A DNA stretch of 64,000 bases from a virus (IMGVR_UViG_3300045988_146577), one strand, 5' to 3'. Positions 6,556-56,201 are shown, counted from the stretch's first letter. Translations and numbers: made by a program. The notes: a model not told the origin generated them from the sequence alone.

Positions 6556-6562
6556 TTTACTC

Positions 6563-40152: not shown

Positions 40153-40154
40153 TT

Positions 40155-40433
40155 ATGAGCGAAAAGAAAACAACTTATTGCCAAGTGGCATTGTCTGATA
40201 AGGCCAATGAAAAACTTGGAAAATTCCAAATAAAACTCAAAGAGAAAAAAATCAAGATGTCTAAGGCTGAAGTTATCAATGCCATTCTGGAGACGATGAC
40301 TATGGCTGAATTTGACAAAGTCACATCTGCCGTTGGGGTTTCCGCTAAGACGCGTGAGAAAATCATGCGCATCTATGAAAACTCCAATATGACAAAAAAA
40401 GATCTAGAGGAAATACTGAGCAGGTTGCCGTAA
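40155..40433 (+). CDS. hypothetical protein (92 aa)
   Basis: ATG 2 nt after helicase stop. Confidence 0.4.
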   Translation: MSEKKTTYCQVALSDKANEKLGKFQIKLKEKKIKMSKAEVINAILETMTMAEFDKVTSAVGVSAKTREKIMRIYENSNMTKKDLEEILSRLP

Positions 40434-40498
40434 CATTTCATATTTACCCCCTATCTACTAATTCTATGATGTGCTCACTTGTTAGAAAGGAGCACATC

Positions 40499-41065: not shown

Positions 41066-41449
41066 TAGTCTACATGCAGGTGTATGAGAGCACCTGCATG
41101 TGACATTCATCACATTTTTGAATGTATATACCTTCGGCTGAAAAAGATCTTGATAGGCTGAATGATATTTGTAGGCTTCGCCTCCGAAGAAATTCGGAGG
41201 ATATATGCGACAATTTATAAAAACGTGTGACCTAAGAAATATAGTAGATGATATTGCATGTGATGAAATTAGCAAAAAAGAGAAGAACAAAAACGCCAAT
41301 TAACGCTATCTACCTATAAATCTGAAGAGTTCAATAGGATGCATATCTGAAACACGCCCTCGACAATACCAAAAAGATTTGTCGAGGGCGTCGGGCTTTC
41401 CCTATGTCTGAACGATTAAATTTTACAGCAATTAAATATTTTGTATATG

Positions 41450-42250
41450 TTATTCTTCTGGTGGCACGACAAAATCATCGAGCTTATTCTTTTCGTCTCG
41501 AAGCAACTTGATTTCTTCTTCTGTTATACATTTGTCATAATCTGTTTGTTCAGAATGGCACAGTGTAACCGCGAATGGATAGCCGGTATAAGACAGTCCC
41601 CTAACAGGTTCTAGTTCACCGTTGTCTTTTTTCCTAAATTTGTAAAAGTCAGGAGTGTCATAATTGGTGACGCTAACAAGAGCATATTTATCATTTTCTC
41701 TTGCATACACTTCACTAACACCTCTCGATTCGCCCAACTCTCTACTCACATATGTCGAATCACTTGCAGCATCAAACACAGCCTGACCTAATGGAGTTTT
41801 TTTTAAATCATCTATTTTCTCTTTTTCCTTCCTGATTTTAGATTCGTTTTCCAGATAAAGTTTCACACCGTTTTCTTTGCATGCTAGATTTTGGCGTTCA
41901 AAACGTAATCGTTCTCTTGCCGAGTTGGTACTTTTATCCATTGTAACGAATACAATCGGGTTACGTTCACGAACATCAAAGATGTGCGCATTGAATGCGG
42001 TCGCACCTGTATAGGCATTCAAGACGTTTTTGCCATTCACTTCTCCACATACCATATATGAATAGCTATTTTCACCTAACTGAATAGCTCGCATATTCGT
42101 GAACCGACCAGCATCAGGATCTAGCAGTGTAGAGCGAATATCCTTTTCAACTAGATCTATGGCTCGCTCTTCATCAGAATCACAACCTGTTAATAGTAAA
42201 GCCGCTATTAACAATGCTAATGAGTATTTTTTATTCACCCCATTCTTCAT
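41450..42250 (-). CDS. lipoprotein (AT-rich moron)
   Basis: Signal peptide plus lipobox LLLTGC; low GC; own terminator hairpin downstream. Confidence 0.6.
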   Translation of the reverse strand: MKNGVNKKYSLALLIAALLLTGCDSDEERAIDLVEKDIRSTLLDPDAGRFTNMRAIQLGENSYSYMVCGEVNGKNVLNAYTGATAFNAHIFDVRERNPIVFVTMDKSTNSARERLRFERQNLACKENGVKLYLENESKIRKEKEKIDDLKKTPLGQAVFDAASDSTYVSRELGESRGVSEVYARENDKYALVSVTNYDTPDFYKFRKKDNGELEPVRGLSYTGYPFAVTLCHSEQTDYDKCITEEEIKLLRDEKNKLDDFVVPPEE

Positions 42251-42352
42251 GAAACTTATTCCATAATCAATTTTTGGTGGAATGTACGGTTAGTCTGTCT
42301 ACGCATCATAGAGATGTATATAATGACCAAAAAAGACTTAAAAAGGTAGACT

Positions 42353-42874
42353 ATGGTTAAAGACATCACCTACGGCATACCGGCTGAAGTATGGCCGCGA
42401 GACTACGAACATGCTGAACGCACCTTGCTCTTCTGGCGGAGAGCTAAATTTCCTGTAAGAGTCACTCTCGAAGACGGCCAAGTGTTTTGCATGTACGTTT
42501 ATGGTCTCATGTCATCTCGTAACAAAGTTGACCTTTGTCCAACTCCATTTGACAAAGAAAATCGTATAAGGCTCCCACTTGAGCGCATTAGCACAATTGA
42601 ATCAGGCGTAATTGATGGCATTGATTACGATTTCAAAGGGAGACTAACAATACACCCTGACTATGTAGACAACCAGCCATCACGTCGTGACTTTTTTAAG
42701 ATATGTCGTCAGGCTTACCAAAACGGCAAATCTATAAGGGTCTACATGGCAGACGGTCGCGAAATTGAGGGAACGTCAGATGGCGTTGACGCCTGTCTAG
42801 TCACACTTAAGTTGGAAGACGGTAGAAAAATACTTATTTTCTTCGATTGGGTTGAACGAATCCTTCCGTTTTAG
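42353..42874 (+). CDS. hypothetical protein (173 aa)
   Basis: ORF with ATG start; no motif recognised. Confidence 0.4.
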   Translation: MVKDITYGIPAEVWPRDYEHAERTLLFWRRAKFPVRVTLEDGQVFCMYVYGLMSSRNKVDLCPTPFDKENRIRLPLERISTIESGVIDGIDYDFKGRLTIHPDYVDNQPSRRDFFKICRQAYQNGKSIRVYMADGREIEGTSDGVDACLVTLKLEDGRKILIFFDWVERILPF

Positions 42875-42883
42875 GATATTGAT

Positions 42884-43183
42884 ATGAAAACTGTAGCAGC
42901 ATTCACATTCTTAACTTTCATTTTTAGCTCTTCCGCATTTCCTCAAGAAAATAGCATTGAACGAGTGCAACGTGTCTCTACAGAGTTGTGTTCAAAGGCG
43001 GAAGACTACGATTTGTGCATGTTAGACCTAAGCATGGCTTTAGGCGCTGCATATCAAGATGGACTGATCGTTGCGGGATGCAAGTTGGGACTTGATGAGC
43101 CTTCGAAAGACAAATGCGAAAACTCGGAGCGTTTTCAGGAATATATAATAAAAGAAATCAGGAACTATGCAAAAAAGATGTAA
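42884..43183 (+). CDS. small secreted Cys-containing protein
   Basis: N-terminal signal peptide MKTVAAFTFLTFIFSSSAF; 4 Cys in mature part. Confidence 0.45.
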   Translation: MKTVAAFTFLTFIFSSSAFPQENSIERVQRVSTELCSKAEDYDLCMLDLSMALGAAYQDGLIVAGCKLGLDEPSKDKCENSERFQEYIIKEIRNYAKKM

Positions 43184-43378
43184 ATTCCTATAAGGGTAAT
43201 AACCGGCTAAGTCCGGTTATTATTTTACATGCCATTCGTTTAACACTCATTCAATTCTCCCCCGTATAAATATATATAAGGTCAAAAGCCGGAATTTATT
43301 ATTTATTTAGGGAACACCTTCGACGATCTCGCTTTTATTTCTAGGGCTTTCATCCCTGCAAAAAACTTAAAAAAATAC

Positions 43379-43406
43379 TTGCAATCTTTTTTCGCGTGTC
43401 GATAAT
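43379..43406 (+). promoter_or_regulatory. sigma70-like promoter
   Basis: TTGCAA -N16- GATAAT about 60 nt upstream of ATG at 43467, in AT-rich spacer. Confidence 0.45.
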
Positions 43407-43466
43407 TGGACTCATCGAAAGCGAAATTGCTAACGATAATTAAATTTTATACTAAGGATTGAAATC

Positions 43467-44117
43467 ATGACTAACATTATCATTTCTAAAAAATCCATCA
43501 TTGAAGCTGCTGCCATTGTATCCGACGAGCTGCGCGAAAAAGCAGATCTGGCAACTCAAACATATAACGAACATTATAAAAATGGTACGCACACAAAAGC
43601 AGACAAAGCAAATATGCAAGCTGCGACCACCAAACTTGCTTACTTCATCAACAACGTCGTAAACGCAGTAGAAGACGAAAAATTGTGCTCTGTTTTCTAC
43701 TATGCGATCAAAGCAAGCAAACAAGCGCCAGAAGTATTTTTCCGTGATGCAATGACTAATAGTTATTCTCTGGAAAAACTGGTTTATCTGGTTAAATCCA
43801 TTAAAGCTGGAAAGTGTGTTTATTCCGTCGCTGATATGTCCGGATCTCGTGTATTCGCATTAATCGATATGATTAACGACGAGATCGAGACGTTCACAAA
43901 TGGCGCTGTTTTCGATTTAATGAATGAAGCGAAAAAAGCCAACGAAATAAAATTAGACGCAGGATACACTCAAGCCAACCAGCTTATCAATCTTTGCGAA
44001 CGTCTTGGACTTGTTGAGAAAGTCAAAGGAATGGGAAGCGCAAAAGCTGGTACGCAGCAATATCGCTTTATTAAAAATGATTTCTATAACTATCTGGCTG
44101 ATGCTTTCAAAGCGTAA
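43467..44117 (+). CDS. hypothetical protein (216 aa)
   Basis: AAGGA RBS; own promoter and terminator. Confidence 0.45.
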   Translation: MTNIIISKKSIIEAAAIVSDELREKADLATQTYNEHYKNGTHTKADKANMQAATTKLAYFINNVVNAVEDEKLCSVFYYAIKASKQAPEVFFRDAMTNSYSLEKLVYLVKSIKAGKCVYSVADMSGSRVFALIDMINDEIETFTNGAVFDLMNEAKKANEIKLDAGYTQANQLINLCERLGLVEKVKGMGSAKAGTQQYRFIKNDFYNYLADAFKA

Positions 44118-44130
44118 TTAATGGAATCTG

Positions 44131-44150
44131 GCGCCCACTATGGGCGCTTT
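44131..44150 (+). terminator. rho-independent terminator
   Basis: GCGCCCA-cta-TGGGCGC hairpin followed by TTTT. Confidence 0.6.
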
Positions 44151-44164
44151 TAAGGAGCTTAATC

Positions 44165-44395
44165 ATGTTTATTCTTATCGCTGGCGTTAACGTGCGCAAT
44201 GAATATTTTGTTAATCGCATCGCTGGGATCGCTGGTTACGCTGGGCGCGCAGTCGAGCTTATAGATGAAACGACGCGCAAAATTGACTTATTGAGCGACC
44301 AGGAGCGAAAAAAAGCAGACGTGAATGACGCTGATATATTTTTAATGTTAAAAGCGTTTGTAGAAATGGGATTTGAAATCAGTTTACATAAATAA
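44165..44395 (+). CDS. hypothetical small protein (76 aa)
   Basis: AAGGAG RBS; flanked by two identical terminator hairpins. Confidence 0.4.
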   Translation: MFILIAGVNVRNEYFVNRIAGIAGYAGRAVELIDETTRKIDLLSDQERKKADVNDADIFLMLKAFVEMGFEISLHK

Positions 44396-44401
44396 AATCG
44401 A

Positions 44402-44424
44402 GCGCCCACTATGGGCGCTTTTTT
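44402..44424 (+). terminator. rho-independent terminator (duplicate of 44131 hairpin)
   Basis: GCGCCCA-cta-TGGGCGC followed by TTTTTT. Confidence 0.65.
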
Positions 44425-44449
44425 CGTTTCCAATACTTCCACCATAACG

Positions 44450-44472
44450 CGCCAATGATGGCGCTTTTTTTA
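44450..44472 (+). terminator. rho-independent terminator
   Basis: GCGCCA-atga-TGGCGC followed by TTTTTTT. Confidence 0.6.
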
Positions 44473-44884
44473 TTGTCTTTGACTCAAGCCAACAACATAA
44501 AAATAAGCGCCAAAATAACGCCATAGACGCGCTTTTATATCCTTACCAGTACATACCCATTACTTAGCGCATTAACGCGCTTAAATCGCGTTATATTGCG
44601 TTATGGTGTATGGTTAATCATTGGCTTTTATTCTTGCTATGTGATCCGCGTTTAATTGTCGGCGCGGATCGGCATTTTGTTTTGTTCCGTATCCGCTCGC
44701 GTATTATGTGCGCGTGATTTTTCACATAATCACACCACTTAATCACATATGTGATTACGCTACGAAAGAAATCTGGATGTCTCAGGCGACGAAAGTCATC
44801 ATAATTTTCCCCGCTCACCTGTCCGACAACCGCTGGTTGGATTCCACCAGCTTCCCGATGTTTTTTCTATATAAAGGCGAATGC

Positions 44885-45002
44885 AGCCGTTTCCCGAAAA
44901 AATCCTGGCCGTTTCCCGTCGGCTCATGAATACGTTCCTCGCCGTTTCTGAAAATTTCCCTGCGGCAGCTGGTGGCTATATAGAAAGGGCCGTTTCTGGC
45001 CC
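44885..45002. repeat. iteron-like cluster 1: four degenerate copies of GCCGTTTCC(C)GAAAA
   Basis: Copies at about 44885, 44907, 44940, 44988, spaced 22-48 bp; each contains small dyad TTTC..GAAA. Confidence 0.55.
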
Positions 45003-45011
45003 TCTTCTCAG

Positions 45012-45494
45012 TTACACGCCATCAAGGATGTGGATGCGGTTGCTTGCGTATACATTCAGCATAAAGTTAGCGCAAAACAGTTTCCATGTATCAACGCCAG
45101 CGGTATACGTAATGTTTTTGCATTTAATCGCATTGTTGGCGATCCGCATCCCCTGCGATACTGCTTCATCGTCGGAAAATTTGAACGACGATTGAGTTTT
45201 AATCCAGACAGAAATCTGCGTAGCGAACTCAATCAGCTTGGACTGGCAGAATCGCCCGGAGCGCACCGGAAAGACGAACGTTCCGAATCCAGAATTTACC
45301 ACATACGCTTTCTCAAATACCCGCGAGTAACGACGATTGCCAATGATGTCGCGTGCAATAATGCATTTTTCTTGTGCTGACAGTTCTACCGTCTCATTGT
45401 CGCGCCATGCACCAAGTACTCGTTTTTCAATGTCAGAGAACGTTACAGCGATATTGCCATGTGCGGGTGCGTTTACAGTAGCGATAAAATTCAT
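45012..45494 (-). CDS. hypothetical protein (160 aa)
   Basis: AAGGAA RBS; class-1 palindrome in leader. Confidence 0.5.
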   Translation of the reverse strand: MNFIATVNAPAHGNIAVTFSDIEKRVLGAWRDNETVELSAQEKCIIARDIIGNRRYSRVFEKAYVVNSGFGTFVFPVRSGRFCQSKLIEFATQISVWIKTQSSFKFSDDEAVSQGMRIANNAIKCKNITYTAGVDTWKLFCANFMLNVYASNRIHILDGV

Positions 45495-45515
45495 GATTAA
45501 TTCCTTATCGTAAAT

Positions 45516-45530
45516 AACAAATTGTTTTCT
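45516..45530 (-). promoter_or_regulatory. class-1 palindrome
   Basis: ACAAATTGTTTTCT followed by TGTTGGTGTTAATTATCG. Confidence 0.5.
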
Positions 45531-45580
45531 TGTTGGTGTTAATTATCGTTGTACGAATAAGGCGTCAAAGTGGAAAGTTG

Positions 45581-45669
45581 CGGTAGCCGGACGGGAACAG
45601 GTGGGTTTGTCGGTTGCCTGGAGGTAAGAGGTTGGTGTTTTTAGCCTGCGGGAAACAGGATGGTCATTT
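45581..45669. repeat. three tandem degenerate ~30-nt repeats (CGGTAGCCNGG...AGGTGGGTnTTT)
   Basis: Direct tandem units read on + strand; paralogous copy at 49207-49290. Confidence 0.5.
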
Positions 45670-45698
45670 AAGGCCACCAGCATTGGTGGCCTTACTCT

Positions 45699-45980
45699 TT
45701 AGTGGAGCAGACCGATGTCGATGGTATCCCCTGAATCATCCACACGGATCATCAGCATGGCGAAGGCGTTTAGTGGATAGCTTGCGTGCCATTCAGGGAA
45801 GCGGTCATCTCGCATGAAGTCGGCAATGTCGTAAACGCAGCCCTCAAAGTGGAAGAATCGCGTGCTTACCTGCTCGTCATATTCCACATGATCCATTTCT
45901 TGCTGTTCTGTTTCCGGCAAGTCCAGCCATGATTCAAGGAATACATTTTGTGCTTTAGGGGTAATGGTGAAATCAGTCAT
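45699..45980 (-). CDS. hypothetical small acidic protein (93 aa)
   Basis: GAGG RBS before ATG at 45980; track ORF 45699..46112 reads through the leader motif. Confidence 0.45.
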   Translation of the reverse strand: MTDFTITPKAQNVFLESWLDLPETEQQEMDHVEYDEQVSTRFFHFEGCVYDIADFMRDDRFPEWHASYPLNAFAMLMIRVDDSGDTIDIGLLH

Positions 45981-45999
45981 GAGCATATCCTCACTGCGT

Positions 46000-46015
46000 A
46001 AACATATTGTTTTCT
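46000..46015 (-). promoter_or_regulatory. class-1 palindrome
   Basis: AAACATATTGTTTTCT followed by TGTTGGTGTAATTATCG. Confidence 0.5.
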
Positions 46016-46315
46016 TGTTGGTGTAATTATCGCAGTGTAGATAAGGCATAAAAGAAGTTAATACAGGCTGAATACACAAGAAAGGTTCTGGAAGTTGATA
46101 GCCAGGTTTCAAACTAACCTTCGGTTATTAAAAGTCATTTAAGACCACCAATGCTGGTGGCCTTAATAATTATCGCCCGATTACGCTAAGGATCTTTTCC
46201 TCAACTGATTTGTTGTTGCGACTAAACTGCCTTGCGTATCTGATGACAGAAGAGGCGTTTTGCTTTCTGACCATCTCGACTCTTTCCTTCAGGCGTTTCT
46301 TGAAATCGCCCATAT

Positions 46316-46690
46316 TTACCACCAGGCGCAGAAGGTCAGTCTGTTATTGTGAAAGTCGTGGTTCTTAATCAGATCTTCCACAAGCTCTTTCAACTCCCCC
46401 ACATCATGCCAGTAACCTTCATCGTACTCCTGACTGCCGAAGAAAAAACCTTCCCGGGTAGGCAAGTACTCTTCGCAATTACTTTCGTTTATGTGCATCA
46501 AATGAGCCTTCAGAAAACAAATGTCATTCATCGTTAATTCTAAAAGCTCACAATTTTCGACTTCACCTACGTTGCGCTCCATCCACCCAACGAGCGCATT
46601 GAACTTACGGAAGTAAGCAACCTGCTTTCTGGATGCCTCGTTATTCAGATCGTTTTTAGGCTGTGTCTCGATATAGATATCAAGTCCCAT
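46316..46690 (-). CDS. hypothetical small acidic protein (124 aa)
   Basis: AAGGA RBS before ATG at 46690 (track start 46732 is GTG). Confidence 0.45.
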   Translation of the reverse strand: MGLDIYIETQPKNDLNNEASRKQVAYFRKFNALVGWMERNVGEVENCELLELTMNDICFLKAHLMHINESNCEEYLPTREGFFFGSQEYDEGYWHDVGELKELVEDLIKNHDFHNNRLTFCAWW

Positions 46691-46746
46691 GATGGTTTCC
46701 TTATTAAGTTGCTTCAGTGAAATCATTTTCACAAATCAGATAAGGC

Positions 46747-46762
46747 AGAAAACAAATTGTTA
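46747..46762 (+). promoter_or_regulatory. class-1 palindrome, inverted orientation, adjacent to terminator
   Basis: AGAAAACAAATTGTTA next to hairpin 46775-46799. Confidence 0.4.
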
Positions 46763-46774
46763 TCGGGCATAATA

Positions 46775-46799
46775 AAATGGCGCGGTTTGCGCGCCATTT
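46775..46799 (-). terminator. rho-independent terminator
   Basis: AAATGGCGCG-gtttg-CGCGCCATTT hairpin followed by U-rich tract on minus strand, after stop of 46808 gene. Confidence 0.6.
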
Positions 46800-46807
46800 A
46801 AAGAGGA

Positions 46808-47203
46808 TTAAGCGAATACGCTTTCAGGGATTAAGGTGTCGGCAGGAATGCCAGAGGTAATGCGCAGACCGTACTGGCCAATCCAGGTGGTGCTGGTGTT
46901 CAGGCTGGAGGCGAATACGGTGTTAACCATATTCATCATGGTTTCAAACACCTCTTCATCAACCTGGCGGAAGTAGTTCTCGATTTTCAGCAGCAGAGGG
47001 TCAGTTGCATCGAGAATGGACTGGTATTGAGTCGCGTACTCGCCGCCGGAGGCATCACCTTTACGCACGATCGTACTGGCCTGGACTTCGGCACCAGTTT
47101 CGGTGTTGTACGTAACAACGGTGATTTTTGCCACATTCTTACCTTCGGCGGTTTCAGAGGCATAGTAAACATCAACTGTCAGTTTTTCGCGTTTAACGGT
47201 CAT
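46808..47203 (-). CDS. hypothetical protein (131 aa)
   Basis: GGAG RBS before ATG at 47203; class-2 palindrome and terminator upstream. Confidence 0.45.
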   Translation of the reverse strand: MTVKREKLTVDVYYASETAEGKNVAKITVVTYNTETGAEVQASTIVRKGDASGGEYATQYQSILDATDPLLLKIENYFRQVDEEVFETMMNMVNTVFASSLNTSTTWIGQYGLRITSGIPADTLIPESVFA

Positions 47204-47245
47204 TTCACTCTCCGTAGTGTTTTGGTTATTTTTATATTCTATGAT

Positions 47246-47263
47246 CGTAAGTATGTACTTACA
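47246..47263 (-). promoter_or_regulatory. class-2 palindrome
   Basis: CGTAAGTATGTACTTACA just downstream of terminator hairpin 47272-47298. Confidence 0.45.
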
Positions 47264-47271
47264 ATACAAAA

Positions 47272-47298
47272 AAGCCCCGTAAGGATGGCGGGGCTGTC
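47272..47298 (-). terminator. hairpin terminator
   Basis: GCCCCG-taaggatgg-CGGGGC downstream of 47330 gene stop. Confidence 0.5.
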
Positions 47299-47329
47299 GT
47301 ACTGTCGACTAATTACCACTTGCACATTA

Positions 47330-47641
47330 TCAGGCTATTGCCATCACTGATGCTCTCTGAATTTCTTGCTGGGCCACGCGGTTAACTTCCATCAAAGCCA
47401 GTTCGAGCTGATGTTCCGGCCACATTCTTTGAAATGCCATCCAGCCTTTTCCACGCTGGCGACGAACATTCATTACATAACGAGTAAAGGTGTTTTTATC
47501 GAAAGACACCGCTGTTTCACGGAACAGACGAATAGAGGTTCCATTGGCAACGATGTCCAGCAAAGTTAATTGAGCAACCAGCGCAGGCTTCTCTTTTCTC
47601 TTCTGGTCTTTGTCCAGACCAAGAACCAATGATTTTTTCAT
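47330..47641 (-). CDS. hypothetical small basic protein (103 aa)
   Basis: GGAG RBS before ATG at 47641; class-1 palindrome in leader. Confidence 0.45.
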   Translation of the reverse strand: MKKSLVLGLDKDQKRKEKPALVAQLTLLDIVANGTSIRLFRETAVSFDKNTFTRYVMNVRRQRGKGWMAFQRMWPEHQLELALMEVNRVAQQEIQRASVMAIA

Positions 47642-47652
47642 CACAACTCCGT

Positions 47653-47668
47653 AAACAACTTGTTTTCT
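47653..47668 (-). promoter_or_regulatory. class-1 palindrome
   Basis: AAACAACTTGTTTTCT about 12 nt upstream of RBS. Confidence 0.5.
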
Positions 47669-47794
47669 CAATGGCGTAAATAATACCAGTAAGAAAACGG
47701 CTACAAAGCATATTGATCAGGTGCATGAGCGATATGCAGGTTCTTCCCTGCGGCTATAGAGAAATTAAGCCAGCAATGCTGGCTTTGGTTGGGA

Positions 47795-48124
47795 TTACTC
47801 GAATACTTCAAGAAACTCCTGAACGTCCCAATGCTGGACGAGGTGAAGATAGACCTTAGAAATCACGTCATTTTCGCTATCGCATGTGAAGTAGTACTTC
47901 TGGCTGCGGTTGTATGTGTCCACACAAAATTCGCTCATATCCATAAAGTCAGCATCTTCACCCATGTCGCAAATCATCAAAGCAGGTGCGTCATCACGAG
48001 TCATCAGCTCAAGCACCCACCGCGAATTGATCAGAGTGGAAGACCAACCTTCCAGCTCATAGAACTGGTCAAACTCTTTTTGAGTCAATTTCTTGATTTG
48101 GTTGATGTCGATATGTGCAAACAT
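47795..48124 (-). CDS. hypothetical small highly acidic protein (109 aa)
   Basis: AAGGA RBS before ATG at 48124; track start 48145 lies inside class-1 palindrome. Confidence 0.45.
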   Translation of the reverse strand: MFAHIDINQIKKLTQKEFDQFYELEGWSSTLINSRWVLELMTRDDAPALMICDMGEDADFMDMSEFCVDTYNRSQKYYFTCDSENDVISKVYLHLVQHWDVQEFLEVFE

Positions 48125-48136
48125 AAAGCAATCCTT

Positions 48137-48152
48137 AAACAACATGTTTTCT
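48137..48152 (-). promoter_or_regulatory. class-1 palindrome
   Basis: AAACAACATGTTTTCT followed by TGTTGGTGTTATTATCG. Confidence 0.5.
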
Positions 48153-48485
48153 TGTTGGTGTTATTATCGCAATAACGCACAGGCGAAAAAGGATTTTATT
48201 CCGGTGAATGTGGTTTTGGCAGTGAGTTTTCAGGTTCAGTACCGAGTACACTTTTTACATTATTCTGATTTAGTGGCCGAAGGTGGCTGGTGGGCAGAAT
48301 AATCATCTCCCCGAAAACCTACTGAAATCGATTGTGACCCGTTGGCTGTCTGGCACAATTACGCTGTAACTGGGCATTCAGAGGGAATCCAGCGGTAAGT
48401 AAGTTCGCCTGCACGTGAGCGCCTCTCTTCTTCCCGCACATTACAGGTGGGTAGCCGCAACTCTCCCTCTCGCTATACCGGTACG

Positions 48486-48617
48486 CCGCCGTTCCTGAAC
48501 CGGCATCGAGCCTTTTCCCGAAATCCACACAGGCAACTCGACCGTTTCCCTGAAAACCTCCAGCCGTTCCCCGAAGGCAACCCAGCCGTTTCTGTAGCGG
48601 GATGCAGCCTTTTCCCT
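48486..48617. repeat. iteron-like cluster 2: six degenerate copies of GCCGTT(T)CC(C)(T)GAA
   Basis: Copies at about 48486, 48510, 48540, 48562, 48584, 48605; 22-30 bp spacing. Confidence 0.55.
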
Positions 48618-48649
48618 GTATGGACCGAAGGCTGACCGTAGGGGTGTTA

Positions 48650-49600
48650 CGGGGGGGTAAAATCAGGAGTTGAATAAATACGAAAAAGGAGGCGACACCC
48701 CTCCTTCCCTCCCCACTTATACATACCTGTCTTGTTCGCTATACATGTTGTGTTTTCTTCGTGTTTTATCTGTCTCAACCTCTCTATAGGCGTTAATGCT
48801 CACTCCTTCCAGAACGTTCTATACGGCGACTATTTCTGTTGGTGAATTGGGTGTGTTGTTTTCTCTGTCGGTGTATGTAGTTTCATTAGTTTTGCGGTGG
48901 TTCTTCTATGGGGTGTTCTCGTCGTTTTGGTGATTGTTCTTCTCCGTGTATGGAGTAATGACAGGTGGGCGATTGCTTTCGTTATTGTGTTTGAGTTGTT
49001 TGTCTGGAGTGTGAAAGGCTTTTGTAGTTATTCGTGTATTGGGTAATGGCGTTTCCCGTGATTGTTATGTTTCGTGTCTTTTGGGATTGAGAGAAACCTT
49101 GCGGTTACAGGCTTCGTTGGGGTTTCAGTGATTCTGATGTTTCTTCGCTGTTTGGGTAATGGCGTGTCGTGAGTATCGCGCGTATGGAAGTTTCGAATTG
49201 CCTGTGAAAGTTAGGTTGGTTGTCCGGTAGCCTGGGAAGAAGAGGTGGGTCTTTTCGGTAGCCTGCCATAAAGAGGTTGGTTGTTTTGGGAATGGCATAT
49301 GTGTTATTTAGTTGTTTTGTTATGCCTGAAAATAAGTTGTTTATATGGTTATGTAACGCAACGGGAACGATTTTGAGCGTGTGTTTTTGTTGGTAGTGTG
49401 TTGGGTCGTCTGTGGTGAAAATTGGACGCTGTGGCGCTGTCTGCTGCGTAGAATTACGGGTATAAGCTGTGATGTGTGGAAACGTCAATTTTTTAGACCA
49501 AATCGGGTGAAAGCGTTGATGTTTCGTTGATCTGTTATTCAGTTGTTTTCTTGATTGTATAAACAACTATAACTTATTGATATTTAAGGATGTGATTGCG
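48650..49600. other. ORF-free, strongly G+T-skewed (on + strand) region with internal degenerate repeats; candidate non-coding RNA or origin-like region
   Basis: No plausible ORF on + strand; only minus-strand ORF is low-complexity; repeats TTGGGTAATGGCGT at about 49035 and 49151. Confidence 0.4.
49207..49290. repeat. tandem degenerate ~30-nt repeats, paralog of 45581-45669
   Basis: CCGGTAGCCTGGGAAGAAGAGGTGGGTCTTTT then CGGTAGCCTGCCATAAAGAGGTTGGTTGTTTT. Confidence 0.5.
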
Positions 49601-49676
49601 GGTATGGAAGGGGAGTAGTGGCGATCAACGGATTCTTATAGAAAAGAATCAAATTGTGACCGCCATTATCAATGTT

Positions 49677-50411
49677 TTACTTAGTTTTGTTTAGCAGAGA
49701 GAGAATTTCATCACTAATTTCACTCGCCTGTTTGATAGCCAATGCAGTTACCTCTTCTATGGTTGGTGACTGTTGATGCTCATGTTTGGTTTCAGTTATG
49801 ACAATGTGTTCTTCACCTGAATTTGCGCATAGTGCCGCATTGACTATAAGGTTTGAGTAAGAATTTAGCAGAGCACTGTTGATAAACGCTTTCACGGTAT
49901 TACTGTCTGCACCAAATACATCTTTTCTGACCGCTTCAGCCTCACAGCGAACCCCTGCAGCAACATCGTGAAGAACATGTATGGCCTTGGAGCTTGTTTG
50001 TTCACAGTACTCAATCATTATTGTCGAATTGTTCTGTTCAACAAATGATCTGATGCCTGACGATTCACCCATAGCATCGAAGGCAGCGTGACTCGCACTA
50101 GTAGAGATATCTTCATAGAGTTCTTCATCGCTATCTTTTTCTTCAGGTGTCGAGGTGTCTTCATCGTCGTAATAGATATTGCCTTTAATCAGTGTTTTGG
50201 ATACTTGATATAAACAATAAGAGACAAGATTTAAGCATTGGATTTTAGCTGTATTGTCCTTTGTCGCCTCGCTCTTCAGTTCTTTCGCTTCTTCAGTAAG
50301 GCTGTTGATAAGACTTTGTATTTTTTCCAACGCGTTAGGTGCACACTCCGCGTTGTCCATAAAGAATTTATAACCAGTTCCAGGGATTTCTAAACTTTTC
50401 AACTTTTTCAT
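49677..50411 (-). CDS. hypothetical protein (244 aa, AT-rich, acidic)
   Basis: ORF with ATG start; low GC relative to neighbours. Confidence 0.45.
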   Translation of the reverse strand: MKKLKSLEIPGTGYKFFMDNAECAPNALEKIQSLINSLTEEAKELKSEATKDNTAKIQCLNLVSYCLYQVSKTLIKGNIYYDDEDTSTPEEKDSDEELYEDISTSASHAAFDAMGESSGIRSFVEQNNSTIMIEYCEQTSSKAIHVLHDVAAGVRCEAEAVRKDVFGADSNTVKAFINSALLNSYSNLIVNAALCANSGEEHIVITETKHEHQQSPTIEEVTALAIKQASEISDEILSLLNKTK

Positions 50412-50456
50412 TTCTTTGATAATCCTAAAAACAAACTACCAATGCTTTAATATCTG

Positions 50457-50756
50457 TTACCAGTTCCAGCACTCAAGCCCTTCAACGACCGGTGCACCAC
50501 AATCAAAATGTACAGAGTCAAAGCCTACATCAAGTACTTTCTGAATGTTAGCAATCGCGCCTTCGGATATACCATATCGACGCAAGTCGTCTTTCCAGAC
50601 ATCATCCTGTAACCCGGCGTGGACAATACAACCGCCATCAATTTGTGAAACCCAATCCAGCTCATTGCTTGCGATCATGAATCGGCGAGCATCTTCCTCT
50701 GATGTATGAGATGAGCTGATCAATGCCACCTGGTAGGCTTGGGTAATGTTCAACAT
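50457..50756 (-). CDS. hypothetical small acidic protein (99 aa)
   Basis: GGAG RBS 9 nt before ATG at 50756; class-1 palindrome immediately upstream. Confidence 0.45.
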   Translation of the reverse strand: MLNITQAYQVALISSSHTSEEDARRFMIASNELDWVSQIDGGCIVHAGLQDDVWKDDLRRYGISEGAIANIQKVLDVGFDSVHFDCGAPVVEGLECWNW

Positions 50757-50769
50757 TTCAACCACTCCA

Positions 50770-50785
50770 AAACAAGTTGTTTTCT
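50770..50785 (-). promoter_or_regulatory. class-1 palindrome
   Basis: AAACAAGTTGTTTTCT immediately upstream of RBS of 50457 gene. Confidence 0.5.
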
Positions 50786-50817
50786 TATGTGGTTTATTAT
50801 CTCCATCAACAAAAGGC

Positions 50818-50834
50818 AGAAAACAAATTGTTTT
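50818..50834 (+). promoter_or_regulatory. class-1 palindrome, inverted orientation, about 40 nt from metG terminator
   Basis: AGAAAACAAATTGTTTT. Confidence 0.4.
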
Positions 50835-50874
50835 AGGTACTGTGTAAATCAGAAGGGATTGTGTCTATATGAAA

Positions 50875-50897
50875 ATGCCCGGCGTGTTGCCGGGCAT
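50875..50897 (-). terminator. rho-independent terminator of metG
   Basis: ATGCCCGGC-gtgtt-GCCGGGCAT hairpin followed by UUUUCAUAU on minus strand, about 20 nt after metG stop. Confidence 0.65.
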
Positions 50898-50917
50898 TGC
50901 GAAGAGAGGTTGTTTAA

Positions 50918-52951
50918 TTACTTAACCTGGTGGCCAGGTTTAGCACCAGCATCCGGGCTTAACAGGAAGATATCTTTCCCACCGGGGCCAGCAGCCATCA
51001 CCATACCTTCGGAGATACCGAAGCGCATTTTACGCGGAGCCAGGTTAGCCACCATAATGGTGTGACGACCAATCAGTGCCTGTGGGTCTGGATAAGCAGA
51101 ACGGATGCCTGAGAAGACATTGCGTTTTTCACCACCTAGATCCAGCGTCAGACGCAGCAGTTTGTCAGAGCCTTCAACAAACTCCGCGTTTTCAATCAGC
51201 GCCACGCGCAGGTCAACTTTGGCGAAGTCATCAAAGGTGATGGTTTCCTGAATCGGATCGTCTGCCAGCGGGCCAGTAACTGGCGCGGCAGTGGCTTTCA
51301 CTTCTTCTTTAGAGGCTTCCACCAGTGCTTCAACCTGCTTCATGTCGATGCGGTTATACAGTGCTTTGAACGGATTAACTTTGTGCGCCAGCAGCGGTTG
51401 CTGGATGCCATCCCAGGTCAGTTCCGTATTGAGGAATGCTTCTGCACGCTCGGTCAGTTTCGGCAGTACCGGCTTCAGGTAAGTCATCAGCACGCGGAAC
51501 AGGTTGATGCCCATTGAGCAAATTGCCTGCAGGTCGGCATCGCGGCCTTCCTGTTTCGCCACCACCCACGGAGCCTGTTCATCGACATAGCGGTTAGCCA
51601 GGTCAGCCAATGCCATGATTTCACGGATAGCTTTACCAAATTCACGGCTTTCCCATGCTTCGCCAATCACTTCAGCGGCATCAGTAAAGGTTTTGTACAG
51701 TTGCGGGTCAGCCAGTTCGCTTGCCAGCACGCCGTCAAAACGCTTGTTGATAAAGCCTGCATTACGAGAGGCCAGGTTAACCACTTTGTTCACGATATCG
51801 GCATTCACGCGCTGAACGAAATCCTCCAGGTTGAGATCGATATCATCAATGCGCGAAGAGAGTTTCGCAGTGTAGTAGTAACGCAGGCTGTCAGCGTCAA
51901 AATGATTCAGCCAGGTGCTGGCTTTAATAAAGGTGCCGCGAGACTTGGACATCTTTGCGCCGTTCACCGTCACATAGCCATGAACAAACAGGTTGGTCGG
52001 CTTGCGGAAGTTGCTGCCTTCCAGCATGGCAGGCCAGAACAGGCTGTGGAAGTAAACAATATCTTTACCGATGAAGTGGTACAGCTCGGCGGTGGAGTCT
52101 TTCTTCCAGTATTCATCGAAGCTTACGCTGTCGCCGCGCTTGTCGCACAGATTCTTGAAAGAACCCATGTAGCCAATCGGTGCGTCCAGCCAGACGTAGA
52201 AATATTTGCCCGGCGCGTTCGGAATTTCAAAACCGAAGTAAGGCGCATCGCGGGAGATATCCCACTGTTGCAGGCCGGATTCAAACCATTCCTGCATTTT
52301 GTTCGCCACCTGCTCCTGCAACGCGCCGCTGCGGGTCCATGCCTGCAACATTTCGCTGAAAGAAGGCAGATCAAAGAAGAAGTGTTCGGAATCACGCATT
52401 ACCGGGGTAGCGCCAGAAACCACCGATTTCGGCTCGATCAATTCAGTCGGGCTATATGTTGCGCCGCAGACTTCACAGTTATCGCCGTATTGATCTGGCG
52501 CTTTACATTTCGGGCAGGTGCCTTTCACAAAACGATCCGGCAGGAACATGCCTTTTTCCGGGTCGTACAACTGAGAGATAGTGCGGTTTTTAATAAAACC
52601 GTTCTCTTTCAGGCGAGTATAGATAAGCTCAGACAGCTGGCGGTTCTCTTCGCTGTGCGTCGAGTGATAGTTGTCATAGCTGATGTTAAAGCCTGCGAAA
52701 TCAGTCTGGTGTTCCTGACTCATTTCGCCAATCATCTGCTCCGGAGTGATACCAAGCTGCTGAGCTTTCAGCATGATCGGCGTACCGTGGGCATCGTCGG
52801 CACAGATGAAATTAACCTCGTGGCCGCGCATTCGCTGGTAACGAACCCAGACATCAGCCTGGATGTGCTCCAGCATATGGCCGAGGTGGATTGAGCCGTT
52901 AGCGTACGGCAGCGCGCACGTCACCAGAATTTTCTTCGCGACTTGGGTCAT
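50918..52951 (-). CDS. metG: methionyl-tRNA synthetase
   Basis: 677 aa; class I HIGH (GSIHLGH) and KMSKS motifs; Zn knuckle CPKC...CEVC; C-terminal tRNA-binding domain; start at MTQVAKK (track ORF extends 43 codons upstream). Confidence 0.95.
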
Positions 52952-53108
52952 AGTAGGCATTACTTCTTTGTAGTGAAAAGGGGCTTGATAGTAACAAAAT
53001 GGCCTTATGTCTGCCATGTGATAACAGCATTTCTCATAAATGATTAAATGTCGTAGCTGGAGTACACTACAAGGCGACAATTGCGCAAATTAAAATAAAG
53101 GAGACGGG

Positions 53109-54209
53109 ATGAGCGAGTCCAAATCGCCGGATGCCCTGAGAGCAATGGTAGCCGGTACGCTGGCTAATTTTCAGCACCCAACCCTGAAACACAACCTGAC
53201 TACGCTTAAAGCGTTACACCATGTTGCGTTGATGGATGACACACTGCATGTCGAACTAATCATGCCTTTCGTGTGGAATAAGCCTTTTGAAGACCTGAAA
53301 GAGCAATGTAGTGGTGATCTGCTCCGTATCACTGGCGCAAAGGCTATTGACTGGAAGCTGTCGTACAACATTGCCACGCTTAAGCGCGTCAAAAACCAAC
53401 CAGGCATTAATGGCGTTAAGAACATTATCGCCGTCAGCTCAGGCAAGGGCGGCGTGGGTAAATCCTCCACGGCGGTAAACCTGGCACTGGCGTTGGCTGC
53501 TGAAGGTGCGAAAGTTGGTATTTTGGATGCCGATATCTATGGTCCATCAATTCCAACCATGCTGGGCGCGGAAAACCAACGTCCAACCTCACCTGACGGT
53601 ACTCACATGGCACCTATCATGTCTCATGGCCTGGCAACCAACTCTATTGGTTATCTGGTCACCGACGACAATGCAATGGTGTGGCGTGGACCGATGGCCA
53701 GCAAGGCGCTGATGCAGATGTTGCAGGAAACTCTATGGCCTGATCTGGACTATCTCGTTCTCGATATGCCGCCGGGCACTGGTGATATTCAGTTGACGCT
53801 GGCGCAGAACATTCCTGTAACTGGTGCGGTTGTGGTAACTACGCCGCAAGACATCGCGCTGATCGATGCGAAGAAAGGCATTGTGATGTTCGAAAAAGTC
53901 GAAGTGCCGGTACTGGGTATCGTCGAAAACATGAGTGTGCATATTTGCAGTAACTGCGGTCATCACGAGCCAATTTTTGGCACCGGTGGCGCACAGAAAC
54001 TGGCCGAGAAATACAACACGCAGTTGTTAGGCCAAATGCCTCTTCATATCTCTCTTCGTGAAGATCTGGATAACGGAACACCAACCGTTATTAGTCGTCC
54101 AGATAGTGAATTTACGGCTATTTATCGTGACCTCGCAGATCGCGTTGCTGCCCAAATGTATTGGCAAGGTGAAGTAATACCTGGCGAAATCGCATTCCGC
54201 GCAGTGTGA
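53109..54209 (+). CDS. apbC: Fe-S cluster carrier ATPase ApbC/Mrp
   Basis: Deviant Walker A SGKGGVGKSS, CxxC (CSNCGHH); AAGGAG RBS; divergent from metG as in enterobacterial chromosomes. Confidence 0.9.
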   Translation: MSESKSPDALRAMVAGTLANFQHPTLKHNLTTLKALHHVALMDDTLHVELIMPFVWNKPFEDLKEQCSGDLLRITGAKAIDWKLSYNIATLKRVKNQPGINGVKNIIAVSSGKGGVGKSSTAVNLALALAAEGAKVGILDADIYGPSIPTMLGAENQRPTSPDGTHMAPIMSHGLATNSIGYLVTDDNAMVWRGPMASKALMQMLQETLWPDLDYLVLDMPPGTGDIQLTLAQNIPVTGAVVVTTPQDIALIDAKKGIVMFEKVEVPVLGIVENMSVHICSNCGHHEPIFGTGGAQKLAEKYNTQLLGQMPLHISLREDLDNGTPTVISRPDSEFTAIYRDLADRVAAQMYWQGEVIPGEIAFRAV

Positions 54210-54215
54210 TAAAAA

Positions 54216-54234
54216 GGTGGTGCATTGCACCACC
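54216..54234 (-). terminator. hairpin terminator (for HumD-like gene; overlaps apbC 3-prime end)
   Basis: GGTGGTGCA-t-TGCACCACC hairpin followed by UUUUUAUCA on minus strand. Confidence 0.5.
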
Positions 54235-54246
54235 TAAACAGTTCTC

Positions 54247-54636
54247 CTACATCACAGGACAATCATCAAACTCGCCACTTCTTGCGTCGTTGATAATGTG
54301 AGTGATCACACCAAACACGGCATTGCTGCCCGTGCATCCATCGTCATCCTTTGGCAATGCTTCCTTCTTACCGGTTCTTAAATCCTCCAGATGCTGACGT
54401 GGGTACTTCCGGTATCTTTTTACGCGATATTCCCCATCCAGAGCGCATACAAGCAGAGAACCATCAACCGGGGTAAGTGAGGAATCGACCACCAGCAATG
54501 CACCCTGTAATATTCCCTCACGATGATGGCTGTCAGCCGCTCTCATGAAGTAGGTCGCTGAAGGATGTCTAATTATCTGCTGATCAAGAGAAATACGGCT
54601 CTCAGCATAATCCGCCGCAGGAGAAGGGAAGCCCAT
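54247..54636 (-). CDS. UmuD'-like S24 peptidase-domain protein (HumD-like, lacks N-terminal cleavable arm)
   Basis: Starts MGFPSPAADY, matching UmuD just after its autocleavage site; Ser (DSHH) and Lys (RVKRYRK) catalytic dyad positions conserved; LexA box upstream. Confidence 0.8.
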   Translation of the reverse strand: MGFPSPAADYAESRISLDQQIIRHPSATYFMRAADSHHREGILQGALLVVDSSLTPVDGSLLVCALDGEYRVKRYRKYPRQHLEDLRTGKKEALPKDDDGCTGSNAVFGVITHIINDARSGEFDDCPVM

Positions 54637-54652
54637 AGCGTTTTGCCCTCAA

Positions 54653-54672
54653 TACTGTTCATTTATACAGTA
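54653..54672 (-). promoter_or_regulatory. LexA (SOS) box
   Basis: TACTGTTCATTTATACAGTA = CTGT-N8-ACAG consensus, about 17 nt upstream of HumD-like start. Confidence 0.75.
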
Positions 54673-54755
54673 TACATGAAAGAAGCTCACTCAGTGCAAC
54701 TGATCGGTACATAGCACCAGACAAAGGAACGTTATTTTCTCGAACAAGAAAAGGT

Positions 54756-54771
54756 AGAAAACAAATTGTTT
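54756..54771 (+). promoter_or_regulatory. class-1 palindrome fused to terminator hairpin (54772-54792)
   Basis: AGAAAACAAATTGTTT + AAGGCCAC-aacta-GTGGCCTT. Confidence 0.45.
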
Positions 54772-54808
54772 AAGGCCACAACTAGTGGCCTTAATGGAGA
54801 AGGGATGC

Positions 54809-55372
54809 TTATTGGCTATGGCTAAAAATCAAATGAGACACTTCATTTGGTTGTAGCTCGTCAAGATCCGGGGCCACAAAACCTTTTCCGAAAGACTTCA
54901 CAAGTGATTCACCAGCCGCATCATTGTCACCTATTACGCGAAAGTCATACGGCAGCATTGCCAGTTGACGACGTAATCCTGCTGAGAAAGTCGAACCTAA
55001 CAGCGCCCACGAATTTCCGCCCGCGTTGTGCACTGCTGCACTTTTAAAAATCGACTCAGTTATCCATATCGGTCCATCTTTTAAAGGAAGATAGGTTCCC
55101 CATAGTAGCTGTCTGCCGTTCGCTCGTGTGAAATACCGGGCCATCTTCGGATTGCTATGCTGCTTAGGAGCGCCTGGTCTGTATGTCTGATACCCGGCCA
55201 ACATCCCATCAAACCTGTATAGAGGGAACGTAACAACTCCTTCGCTTTCATCGATCCACTGTCTATATGGATGCACATCATGGCGGTAGTTACGAGTTAG
55301 CAAATGAGCTTCCAGCTTTCCATATTTGGTCATAACTTCGCATCCCTCATAACACTTCCCATTTATCACCAT
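54809..55372 (-). CDS. hypothetical protein with TOPRIM-like acidic motifs
   Basis: ITESIF ... GDNDAAGE resembles Glu / DxD TOPRIM signature; start may be M14 (55333). Confidence 0.35.
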   Translation of the reverse strand: MVINGKCYEGCEVMTKYGKLEAHLLTRNYRHDVHPYRQWIDESEGVVTFPLYRFDGMLAGYQTYRPGAPKQHSNPKMARYFTRANGRQLLWGTYLPLKDGPIWITESIFKSAAVHNAGGNSWALLGSTFSAGLRRQLAMLPYDFRVIGDNDAAGESLVKSFGKGFVAPDLDELQPNEVSHLIFSHSQ

Positions 55373-56201
55373 ATTTCTCCATAGCTCTTAGCCAGTAAAC
55401 ATGGCCACTAGGCATAGTGATGTGAGGCTCGCCAAACTCTTCTCCATGCACATCAAAGATGTCCCCAACAGAGAATTGGGGGATTTCTACGCCGTTTTCA
55501 CCTATATGCGTAATTCGTATACGTTTCGGTTGAGATTCTCCCCCTTTGAGCGAGTTGTTCACTGCTCTGGCAATCTTCTCCCGCAATTGCTGCGTTCCGT
55601 GGTACTGAACCGCAATATCCCTCAACTCATTCACCAGTTCTCGAATCTGGTGATCTTTAAGCTCATTATTTGAGTGATGGGTAACAACTCTGGTTAATTC
55701 ACCCTTGTCTTTTGCTCTTACGTATGCAGCTCTTGTGCATTCGACCCATGTATTACCGCCTACATTAACTTCGTAGATTAGGCTGGACTTATCTGTCAAT
55801 TCGGAACAAATACGGACCGTGGTCTGGCAACTAGAGCATTCGCAGTTATCGCGGAAACCGTGGTCTACTGGCTTCGGTTTCACATCATCAACTTTTTCTA
55901 CCCTATTGGAATTTAAATACTTCGAAGCCTTGCTATGCCAATCGCTGGTTTTAGGATCTTGTCCATCCATCAAACGCCAGGCTTCAGCGATTAACTCATA
56001 ACTAGTGACTGTAGCTTCCTGCGCATCACCAATAAGTCGTGTAATCTCTCTTTCAAGCCGACCGCCTAGCTCTGTTTTAGTGCAATGTTCTGACCAATCG
56101 CCAGCCTCAAGCAGCGCGAGAATGCTTAAAATATCGTCCAATAGAACGGTAGTATTATCGACTTCCTTCTGAAACTCACCGGCTACTGATTTATGCATCA
56201 T
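55347..56201 (-). CDS. hypothetical protein (284 aa, Cys cluster CECSSCQ)
   Basis: ORF overlapping upstream and downstream genes (operon). Confidence 0.45.
   Translation of the reverse strand: MMHKSVAGEFQKEVDNTTVLLDDILSILALLEAGDWSEHCTKTELGGRLEREITRLIGDAQEATVTSYELIAEAWRLMDGQDPKTSDWHSKASKYLNSNRVEKVDDVKPKPVDHGFRDNCECSSCQTTVRICSELTDKSSLIYEVNVGGNTWVECTRAAYVRAKDKGELTRVVTHHSNNELKDHQIRELVNELRDIAVQYHGTQQLREKIARAVNNSLKGGESQPKRIRITHIGENGVEIPQFSVGDIFDVHGEEFGEPHITMPSGHVYWLRAMEKYGDKWEVL

Follow-up and report, generated by a model that had tools for sequence, protein, structure and literature searches.

Colinearity with complete plasmids assigns a metG-apbC gene pair in viral DNA to an SSU5-supergroup phage-plasmid

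Why should a pair of housekeeping genes lie in the middle of phage DNA? The question is raised by a 64,000-nucleotide stretch of viral origin (IMGVR_UViG_3300045988_146577, analysed at its full length and referred to here as the window), in which metG, encoding methionyl-tRNA synthetase (MetRS), and the divergent apbC (mrp), encoding an iron-sulphur (Fe-S) cluster carrier, are enclosed on both sides by phage-like blocks. An earlier note made from the sequence alone had favoured either one prophage split around a chromosomal locus or two prophages flanking it, and had ranked capture of the host pair by a phage-plasmid as less likely. It is the last of these readings that proved correct, the window being colinear with circular phage-plasmids of ~108 kb and with Escherichia phage Cyrano. 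That this phage-plasmid lineage carries metG and apbC as cargo is already known, the genes having been annotated in public records since pLF82.

Source of the window and limits of the cargo

The window follows nt 26343-90148 of NZ_CP061531.1 (WEM25 p1), a circular Escherichia coli plasmid and SSU5-type phage-plasmid of ~108 kb, in colinear order, 58.2 of its 64 kb aligning at 95-99% identity. Window positions 40000-56000 match phage Cyrano (OV696614 = pLF82) at 97.7% identity across 92% of their length, and 44400-56000 match circular E. coli plasmids of ~105-120 kb at 96-98% identity, with metG and apbC annotated at the same place. The colinear stretch of NZ_CP061531.1 contains primase, helicase, toxin-antitoxin, tail, tape-measure, capsid, portal, terminase and ParB genes together with the metG-apbC module and small early genes, so that siphovirus structural genes and plasmid maintenance genes lie on one colinear backbone, the combination that defines an SSU5-supergroup phage-plasmid. 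Around the module, Cyrano/pLF82 (OV696614, NC_011917) and WEM25 p1 are 97-98% identical to the window with the same gene order and the same position of metG and apbC, the latter labelled 'MinD' in the Cyrano annotation. They differ in that window segments 3701-4946, 8581-10483 and 40406-43180 are not matched in WEM25 p1, and in that metG departs from the Cyrano/WEM25-type copies by 2.9-3.7%, in patches. The type members of the supergroup, Salmonella phage SSU5 and pHCM2, share ParB genes, helicase, small early genes and a DUF4942 methyltransferase, and the SSU5 backbone is 67-87% identical to the window on both sides of the module; SSU5 itself, however, lacks metG, apbC and humD and has ~5 kb of unrelated small genes in the matching interval.

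Features of an integrated prophage were not found. As the earlier note had said, no integrase is recognisable: none is annotated in the part of the plasmid that is colinear with the window, and Pfam scans of the window segments without a match there revealed none. There is no tRNA gene within the window, the chromosomal neighbours of metG and apbC (yehE, yehF) are absent from it, and no chromosomal similarity extends past the two coding sequences. The only tyrosine recombinase of NZ_CP061531.1 (plasmid nt 18243-19346) and its repA (nt 1-1056) both lie beyond the stretch matched by the window. Sequence comparison thereby shows that the window is part of an SSU5-supergroup phage-plasmid belonging to the pLF82 (Cyrano) type of Escherichia/Shigella.

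The module and its borders comprise the following features:

50918-52951, minus strand: metG, complete methionyl-tRNA synthetase of 677 aa (Pfam PF09334 at 1e-165, PF19303, PF01588)
53109-54209, plus strand: apbC/mrp, Fe-S cluster carrier P-loop ATPase of 366 aa (Pfam PF10609 at 2.4e-102)
52952-53108: divergent promoter region common to metG and apbC, 157 bp
50874-50898, minus strand: probable metG terminator, hairpin AATGCCCGGC-N5-GCCGGGCATT followed by TTTTCAT
54215-54235, minus strand: hairpin AGGTGGTGCA-N1-TGCACCACCT between apbC and a convergent humD-like gene, with a T-run following on the minus strand

Both genes are present and intact at the coordinates first proposed for them. MetRS carries HLGH at residue 22, KMSKS at 333 and a zinc knuckle (CPKC...CEVC), in addition to an anticodon-binding domain and a C-terminal tRNA-binding domain, identifying it as a class I aminoacyl-tRNA synthetase (aaRS) of the MetG type. 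ApbC has the Walker A motif GKGGVGKS at residue 112 and CSNC at 280, as in ApbC/Mrp Fe-S carriers, and aligns with Mrp of E. coli K-12 over its whole length with ~25 substitutions and a non-synonymous divergence (dN) of 0.035.

Against K-12 and 80 other enterobacterial genomes, chromosomal similarity runs only from 50917/50918 to 54205-54210. Foreign DNA consequently begins 0-5 bp past each stop codon, not 30-130 bp beyond the 3' ends as had been noted from the sequence. When the region and its flanks were compared with chromosomes and phage-plasmids, the plasmid match took in both flanks and the chromosomal match was confined to the gene pair with its intergenic region. The hairpins lying 3' of metG and apbC have no counterpart downstream of the K-12 genes. 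With its T-run on the minus strand, the 54215-54235 hairpin is therefore a terminator for the humD-like gene, and it probably acts in both directions. The junctions are identical in all seven aligned phage-plasmid copies, which come from E. coli, Shigella sonnei, E. albertii and E. fergusonii and include complete circular plasmids and re-annotated Cyrano. The cargo, placed in the accessory/early region, is thus shown to comprise the coding sequences of metG and apbC with the native divergent promoter region between them, and nothing more. It resembles the chromosomal metG-mrp (apbC) locus of Enterobacteriaceae in having the same two genes, their divergent arrangement and a homologous intergenic region, and differs from it in that terminators and neighbouring genes have been replaced by phage-plasmid DNA and in that apbC is deeply divergent.

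The module is common. At least 80% of window 44400-56000 is contained in 138 E. coli genomes, and at least 80% of the module in 205 PLSDB records, ~190 of them at 95-99% identity (E. coli, S. sonnei, E. albertii and E. fergusonii). In a search of PLSDB with two 800-bp flanks joined as an empty site, the flanks were adjacent in none of 966 matching records.

Promoters, selection and function of the module

Palindromes had been reported on both flanks of the gene pair, and these are real: AAAACAANTTGTTTT occurs at 11 sites in the window at up to one mismatch, among them 50769, 50820 and 54758, against 0.04 expected from shuffled sequences. Its 13-nt core is found at 16 sites, also at up to one mismatch:

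2765, 6003, 35181, 35206, 45515, 46000, 46750, 47653, 48137, 49330, 50770, 50821, 54759, 57897, 62437 and 63166: sites of the core AAACAANTTGTTT
50769-50783 and 50820-50834, minus strand: two operator palindromes bracketing a GATAAT -10 element ahead of a DUF5983 gene, directly past the metG terminator
54758-54772, minus strand: operator palindrome with an abutting terminator-like hairpin (54770-54794) upstream of the humD-like gene, an arrangement that recurs at 57897

Two minus-strand settings are seen: in one, a GATAAT -10 element comes just upstream of the palindrome and an ATG follows it at 15-25 nt; in the other it directly follows a terminator hairpin and overlaps a -35-like TTGTTT. The set looks like candidate operators of one repressor acting on the many small early promoters of the element. 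The proposal that both flanks are under one regulatory system is borne out by these sites and by their common promoter settings. The module is shown to sit between phage-plasmid promoters that bear the element's own operator palindrome, and no match to the palindrome was found between 50835 and 54757, hence none in the metG-apbC intergenic region; judged from this sequence pattern, the module probably runs on inherited host-type promoters. A consensus promoter scan of 50.7-54.9 kb gave no more sites than shuffled sequence, and Rfam at gathering threshold gave no match in 44-56 kb.

Strain LF82 carries 5.5 copies of Cyrano per cell; the element produces virions and can be induced with ciprofloxacin (PMC9928086). 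The apbC homologue (CYRAN_99) is among the genes expressed 9-fold over the background of the element, and the last three value columns of the LF82 S1 table read 101.8, 81.6 and 91.7 for apbC and 17.9, 14.4 and 16.1 for metG (PMC9928086), although the metG figures may be biased by read cross-mapping to the 95%-identical chromosomal paralogue. With host-type promoters that are free of the phage operator, the module would be expressed in plasmid-state lysogeny, at ~5 copies per cell, and would give the host an additional Fe-S carrier as well as a second MetRS that differs slightly from its own.

Full-length open reading frames (ORFs) of metG and apbC are kept in all seven phage-plasmid copies, among which the ratio of non-synonymous to synonymous polymorphism (pN/pS) is 0.019 for metG and 0.008 for apbC, and the ApbC protein is identical in five. 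Intact ORFs and low pN/pS show strong purifying selection on both genes on the phage-plasmid itself, which indicates that both are maintained by selection on the element; apbC is clearly selected and is no passive passenger.

As to what is selected, the likeliest effect of metG is to help the lysogenic host survive antimicrobials, an assignment to which we give slightly less than an even chance. According to a report that cites Tam et al. 2024, an extra metG carried by a phage-plasmid in S. sonnei leads to a surviving subpopulation under antimicrobials, and its expression to a subpopulation predisposed to third-generation cephalosporin resistance (PMC12452169). The element, named pWPMR2 and belonging to the SSU5 supergroup, occurs in S. 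sonnei and in E. coli CC131, CC23 and CC73 (10.1101/2025.09.12.675607). As PMC12452169 and 10.1101/2025.09.12.675607 describe it, pWPMR2 resembles the element in the window in its supergroup, in its Shigella/E. coli hosts and in its plasmid-borne second metG. The S. sonnei plasmids of 107-109 kb compared here, which we infer to be pWPMR2, carry the same module with the same junctions at 96.4% identity over the module. Their metG differs from the window allele by 5.0%, and the window lacks the substitutions G134C, A410T and D565E. These three are present in the MetRS of S. sonnei LR213459.1 (6001-8034) and in none of six other copies or 15 full-length chromosomal sequences. D565E adjoins residues 569-572, the deletion of which (the metG ETIT-deletion mutant) is a high-persistence mutation (PMC11004401); independent work connects metG with persistence by way of a lowered capacity for charging or for homocysteine editing (PMC11004401).

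The main functional rival is that the phage, not the host, benefits from the module, a MetRS of its own (with ApbC) sustaining translation and metabolism during lytic growth or host shut-off. This would fit a self-sufficiency kit of tRNAs, NrdAB, ThyA, DHFR, DnaE and ligase, close relatives encoding four tRNAs and many nucleotide-metabolism and replication genes, and it agrees with the strong purifying selection on both genes. Against it, the operator palindrome of the element is absent from the module, whose promoters remain host-type; lysogens express apbC without induction; SSU5 and the Klebsiella relatives propagate without the module; and a MetRS 99% identical to the host enzyme offers no new specificity. 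We regard service to the phage as rather unlikely, yet deserving of weight.

Mobile second copies of aaRS genes can confer resistance to inhibitors, an example being plasmid ileS2/mupA against mupirocin. The module resembles ileS2/mupA in placing an extra aaRS gene on a mobile element while the host keeps its chromosomal gene, but those enzymes are divergent and inhibitor-insensitive. The MetRS of the window is 99% identical to that of the host and its differing residues are mostly common enterobacterial states, which makes a resistant-target mechanism unlikely, and this hypothesis was rejected.

Contrasting histories of metG and apbC

The two genes differ greatly in their distance from E. coli. 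Compared with K-12, metG is 95.1% identical at the DNA level, with a synonymous divergence (dS) of 0.24, dN of 0.005 and dN/dS of ~0.02, amounting to seven conservative substitutions in MetRS. apbC, by contrast, is ~82% identical to Escherichia and Citrobacter alike, with dS of 1.4-1.7 against Escherichia (~1.59), two Citrobacter species, Kluyvera and Enterobacter, a saturated 2.7-3.1 against Salmonella arizonae and Klebsiella grimontii, and again dN/dS of ~0.02. These values exceed those of 1.2-1.3 separating K-12 apbC from its counterparts in other genera (Citrobacter, Kluyvera, Enterobacter). In neighbour-joining trees the phage-plasmid metG alleles are placed inside Escherichia, and the apbC alleles form one long branch leaving near the base of the Escherichia/Citrobacter/Salmonella group. 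A switch occurs within the intergenic region, where the 47 bp at the metG start (52952-52998) are 89-91% Escherichia-like; the rest aligns best with Citrobacter (77-78%) and poorly or hardly at all with E. coli. The contrast in dS (0.24 for metG, ~1.6 for apbC) together with this switch identifies the pair as a mosaic.

Within metG the mosaic is finer still, its longest run of identity with K-12 being the following:

51998-52243, minus strand: metG tract identical to K-12, 246 bp

Runs as long as this one, or as the 344-bp run in the S. sonnei copy, were reached in none of 5000 permutations. Among the seven phage-plasmids metG shows patchy differences of 1.5-5.6%, and the four-gamete test fails in 1422 of 2485 pairs of informative sites. 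Phage-plasmid MetRS residues T112, T275, T276, T319, I442 and K538 are common enterobacterial states; the window has the E. coli-type S275/V276 exactly within its K-12-identical tract, most other phage-plasmid copies having T275/T276. On this sequence evidence the tract is read as a recent gene-conversion patch, and the patchiness of metG with its K-12-identical tracts indicates repeated gene conversion from chromosomal metG. apbC differs by 0.5-3.9% among the seven copies, and six share one intergenic sequence, from which F404 departs at 0.6%.

A capture followed by conversion would be the simplest account of this pattern. The intact divergent pair would have been captured once, long ago, from the chromosome of an enterobacterium other than E. 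coli, since apbC and most of the intergenic region are equally far from E. coli and Citrobacter and the junctions are identical in seven copies. The metG half would then have been overwritten repeatedly, in short tracts, by recombination with the chromosomal metG of successive Escherichia hosts, which would keep it Escherichia-like, patchy and hypervariable, and apbC may have become too divergent for efficient homologous exchange. The age implied could be shorter if mutation were faster on the element.

Had the pair been taken recently and in one step from E. coli, the low identity of apbC would stem from relaxed or accelerated evolution of a hitchhiker; the placement of metG among Escherichia in the tree agrees with this. 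The divergence of apbC is, however, nearly all synonymous (dS 1.6, dN/dS 0.02) and its protein is identical in five of seven copies, denoting constraint and not relaxation. The intergenic region moreover aligns with Citrobacter and not with E. coli, and metG residues outside the converted tracts are in non-E. coli states, so that a recent capture is very improbable.

Allele distribution bears on the remaining readings. When 5,426 complete E. coli genomes were searched with the apbC half, 5,421 records had only an allele in the 80-90% band (82-83% in the examples listed), and ~216 records had the 95-100% allele, matching 221 places on plasmids. Phage-plasmid apbC is, on these matches, a distinct foreign allele present in roughly 4% of complete E. 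coli genomes. Among the genome-contig matches listed, which took in few Escherichia species and left out E. albertii and E. fergusonii chromosomes, no apbC outside phage-plasmids exceeded ~82% DNA identity, and a set of 5.8 billion proteins held nothing above ~95% amino-acid identity outside phage-plasmids. As for transfer in the opposite direction, from phage-plasmid to chromosome, the 503 bp at the metG 3' end gave only 63 records at 95% or more against the 221 plasmid places, and hence no excess, in identity bands too coarse to exclude short tracts.

A chromosomal metG-apbC locus flanked by one rearranged prophage or two related prophages, the readings favoured earlier, would account for phage-like DNA with common regulatory palindromes on both sides and for a metG 95% identical to that of E. 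coli. These readings are refuted by the colinearity of the whole window with complete circular plasmids and a phage genome, by the absence of yehE, yehF or any other chromosomal neighbour, similarity stopping at the stop codons, and by an apbC of the plasmid type (82-83% identical to the 5,421 E. coli chromosome records, 95-100% to plasmid copies), and we attach next to no probability to them. Equally hard to credit is integration of the phage-plasmid into the chromosome of this strain by RecA recombination between the two metG genes. Two kilobases at 95% identity with identical tracts of several hundred bases would be a workable substrate, and chromosome records slightly outnumber those with a best match in the 80-90% band, so that a few chromosomes may hold the phage-plasmid allele; integration would nevertheless put chromosome directly beside metG, whereas no chromosomal DNA occurs in the 51 kb by which the window extends leftward from the module or in the 10 kb to its right, and apbC in the window is the phage-plasmid allele. 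Least credible of all is an assembly chimera in which a chromosomal metG-apbC contig was misjoined into a phage-plasmid, since, for all that a near-identical chromosomal metG paralogue could confuse assemblers, the same junctions recur in seven aligned copies including complete circular plasmids of four species and Cyrano, ~190 independent PLSDB plasmids carry the module, and its apbC half is not the chromosomal allele. Identical junctions in seven copies, the ~190 plasmids and the lack of joined flanks together exclude both misassembly and a chromosomal locus between prophages.

Several observations weigh against the explanation as a whole, that is, a stretch of SSU5-supergroup phage-plasmid with a captured metG-apbC cargo module whose metG was later overwritten by conversion. 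No empty-site relative was found in PLSDB, so that the insertion event cannot be reconstructed; the window contains neither repA nor either end of the replicon, its plasmid state being deduced from relatives; and mutation proceeding faster on the element could account for part of the apparent antiquity of the capture, no chromosomal ApbC closer than ~95% amino-acid identity having been found. Phage-plasmid metG is weakly expressed in the LF82 transcriptome (~16 normalised units against ~92 for apbC), and published metG persistence phenotypes come from reduced MetRS function and not from extra copies (PMC11004401), so that the action of an additional near-wild-type copy is not obvious. MetRS is a dimer, and mixed dimers or a dosage imbalance are possible. 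With these points counted, we consider the explanation as a whole highly probable.

One further record touches on the chromosomal comparison. In CP170191.1, labelled Enterobacter hormaechei B56, the metG-apbC region is as close to the window as that of K-12 is (88.98% against 88.99% identity over ~3.3 kb), with downstream flanks unlike those of K-12; the record may be mislabelled or may hold an E. coli-like segment.

Flanking genes, other loci and wider meaning

The genes around the module, all on the minus strand, and one associated regulatory site are as follows:

49677-50411, minus strand: coiled-coil protein, left of metG (Cyrano CYRAN_102/101 and WEM25 annotations)
50457-50765, minus strand: DUF5983 protein, left of metG (Cyrano CYRAN_102/101 and WEM25 annotations; Pfam PF19419)
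54247-54636, minus strand: humD/umuD-like S24 peptidase related to P1 humD (Pfam PF00717)
54653-54672, minus strand: consensus LexA box TACTGTTCATTTATACAGTA at the humD-like gene, read directly from the sequence
54809-55372, minus strand: toprim-domain protein, right of apbC (RefSeq annotation of the colinear plasmid, no Pfam match)
55347-56201, minus strand: hypothetical protein, right of apbC (RefSeq annotation of the colinear plasmid, no Pfam match)

The humD-like region is 88% identical to the Punavirus P1 'LexA regulated function / error-prone repair protein', a likeness at the sequence level that suggests module exchange between P1-type and SSU5-type phage-plasmids. Its homologue CYRAN_98 has the highest expression among the genes around the module in the LF82 data. 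To the left, ~48150-49676 is a stretch of ~1.5 kb devoid of coding sequences (CDS) in the RefSeq annotation of the closest plasmid and 67% identical to SSU5; 49001-50000 has a strong GC skew of +0.29 with an AT skew of -0.23, and the only repeats found in the CDS-poor 48.0-49.75 kb are weak, degenerate ones. The stretch may be a non-coding element, an origin or a set of genes missed by the annotation. Further left, 40000-44000 has a GC content of 37-41% against ~47% elsewhere and, unlike in WEM25 p1, is present in Cyrano; 42353-42874 within it encodes a FljA-like 'repressor of phase-1 flagellin' (Pfam PF03614, 3.5e-80), and a putative lipoprotein is encoded there too. Segment 8581-10483, unmatched in the closest plasmid, lies within a tail-fibre gene (8738-12763, 1341 aa, with a Gp34-type trimerisation domain), which implies that the receptor-binding region is variable between close relatives.

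At the far left of the window is a cluster of three genes:

5299-5967, minus strand: ParA/MipZ-like partition ATPase, adjoining the TacA/GNAT pair
6286-7084, plus strand: TacA-like antitoxin and GNAT toxin pair (antitoxin Pfam TacA1 at 5.7e-26)
6563-7084, plus strand: AtaT/KacT-type GNAT toxin (residues 1-172 matching PDB AtaT 6GTS/6AJM at E 1e-79 and KacT 5ZGN at 4e-75)

The ATPase, antitoxin and toxin (5299-7084) form a plasmid-maintenance cluster inside the phage-plasmid. A GNAT toxin of an AtaT-related family had been noticed beforehand, and it does exist, AtaT and KacT being its best solved relatives; by sequence the 6286-7084 pair has the features of an AtaT/KacT-type toxin with a TacA-type antitoxin gene upstream of it. 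A mechanistic link between toxin and metG was considered and finds no support in position, the two being 44 kb apart; in SSU5, which has no metG, the matching region contains an annotated acetyltransferase.

The housekeeping pair met here in phage DNA is thus a fixed cargo of a common phage-plasmid lineage, and represents neither a hotspot of prophage integration nor a misassembly. The cargo is medically relevant because phage-plasmid metG has been linked to antimicrobial survival in epidemic S. sonnei. What is added here is modest and may or may not be present already in the primary literature: the exactness with which the captured DNA has been trimmed, the contrast in evolutionary depth between the two genes, the conversion mosaic of metG and the tight conservation of apbC. 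As apbC is conserved at least as strongly as metG and is apparently better expressed, studies of metG only may miss part of the selected trait. A more far-reaching reading is possible but doubtful on the present sequences: that an old non-Escherichia pair has its metG half continually rewritten by host metG, that the phage-plasmid thereby mixes and moves metG alleles between Escherichia/Shigella strains, and that apbC, not metG, is the more tightly selected and more highly expressed gene. Were this true, and were alleles to pass also from the plasmid into the chromosome, an infectious multicopy element could act as a source of variants of a persistence-linked essential gene.

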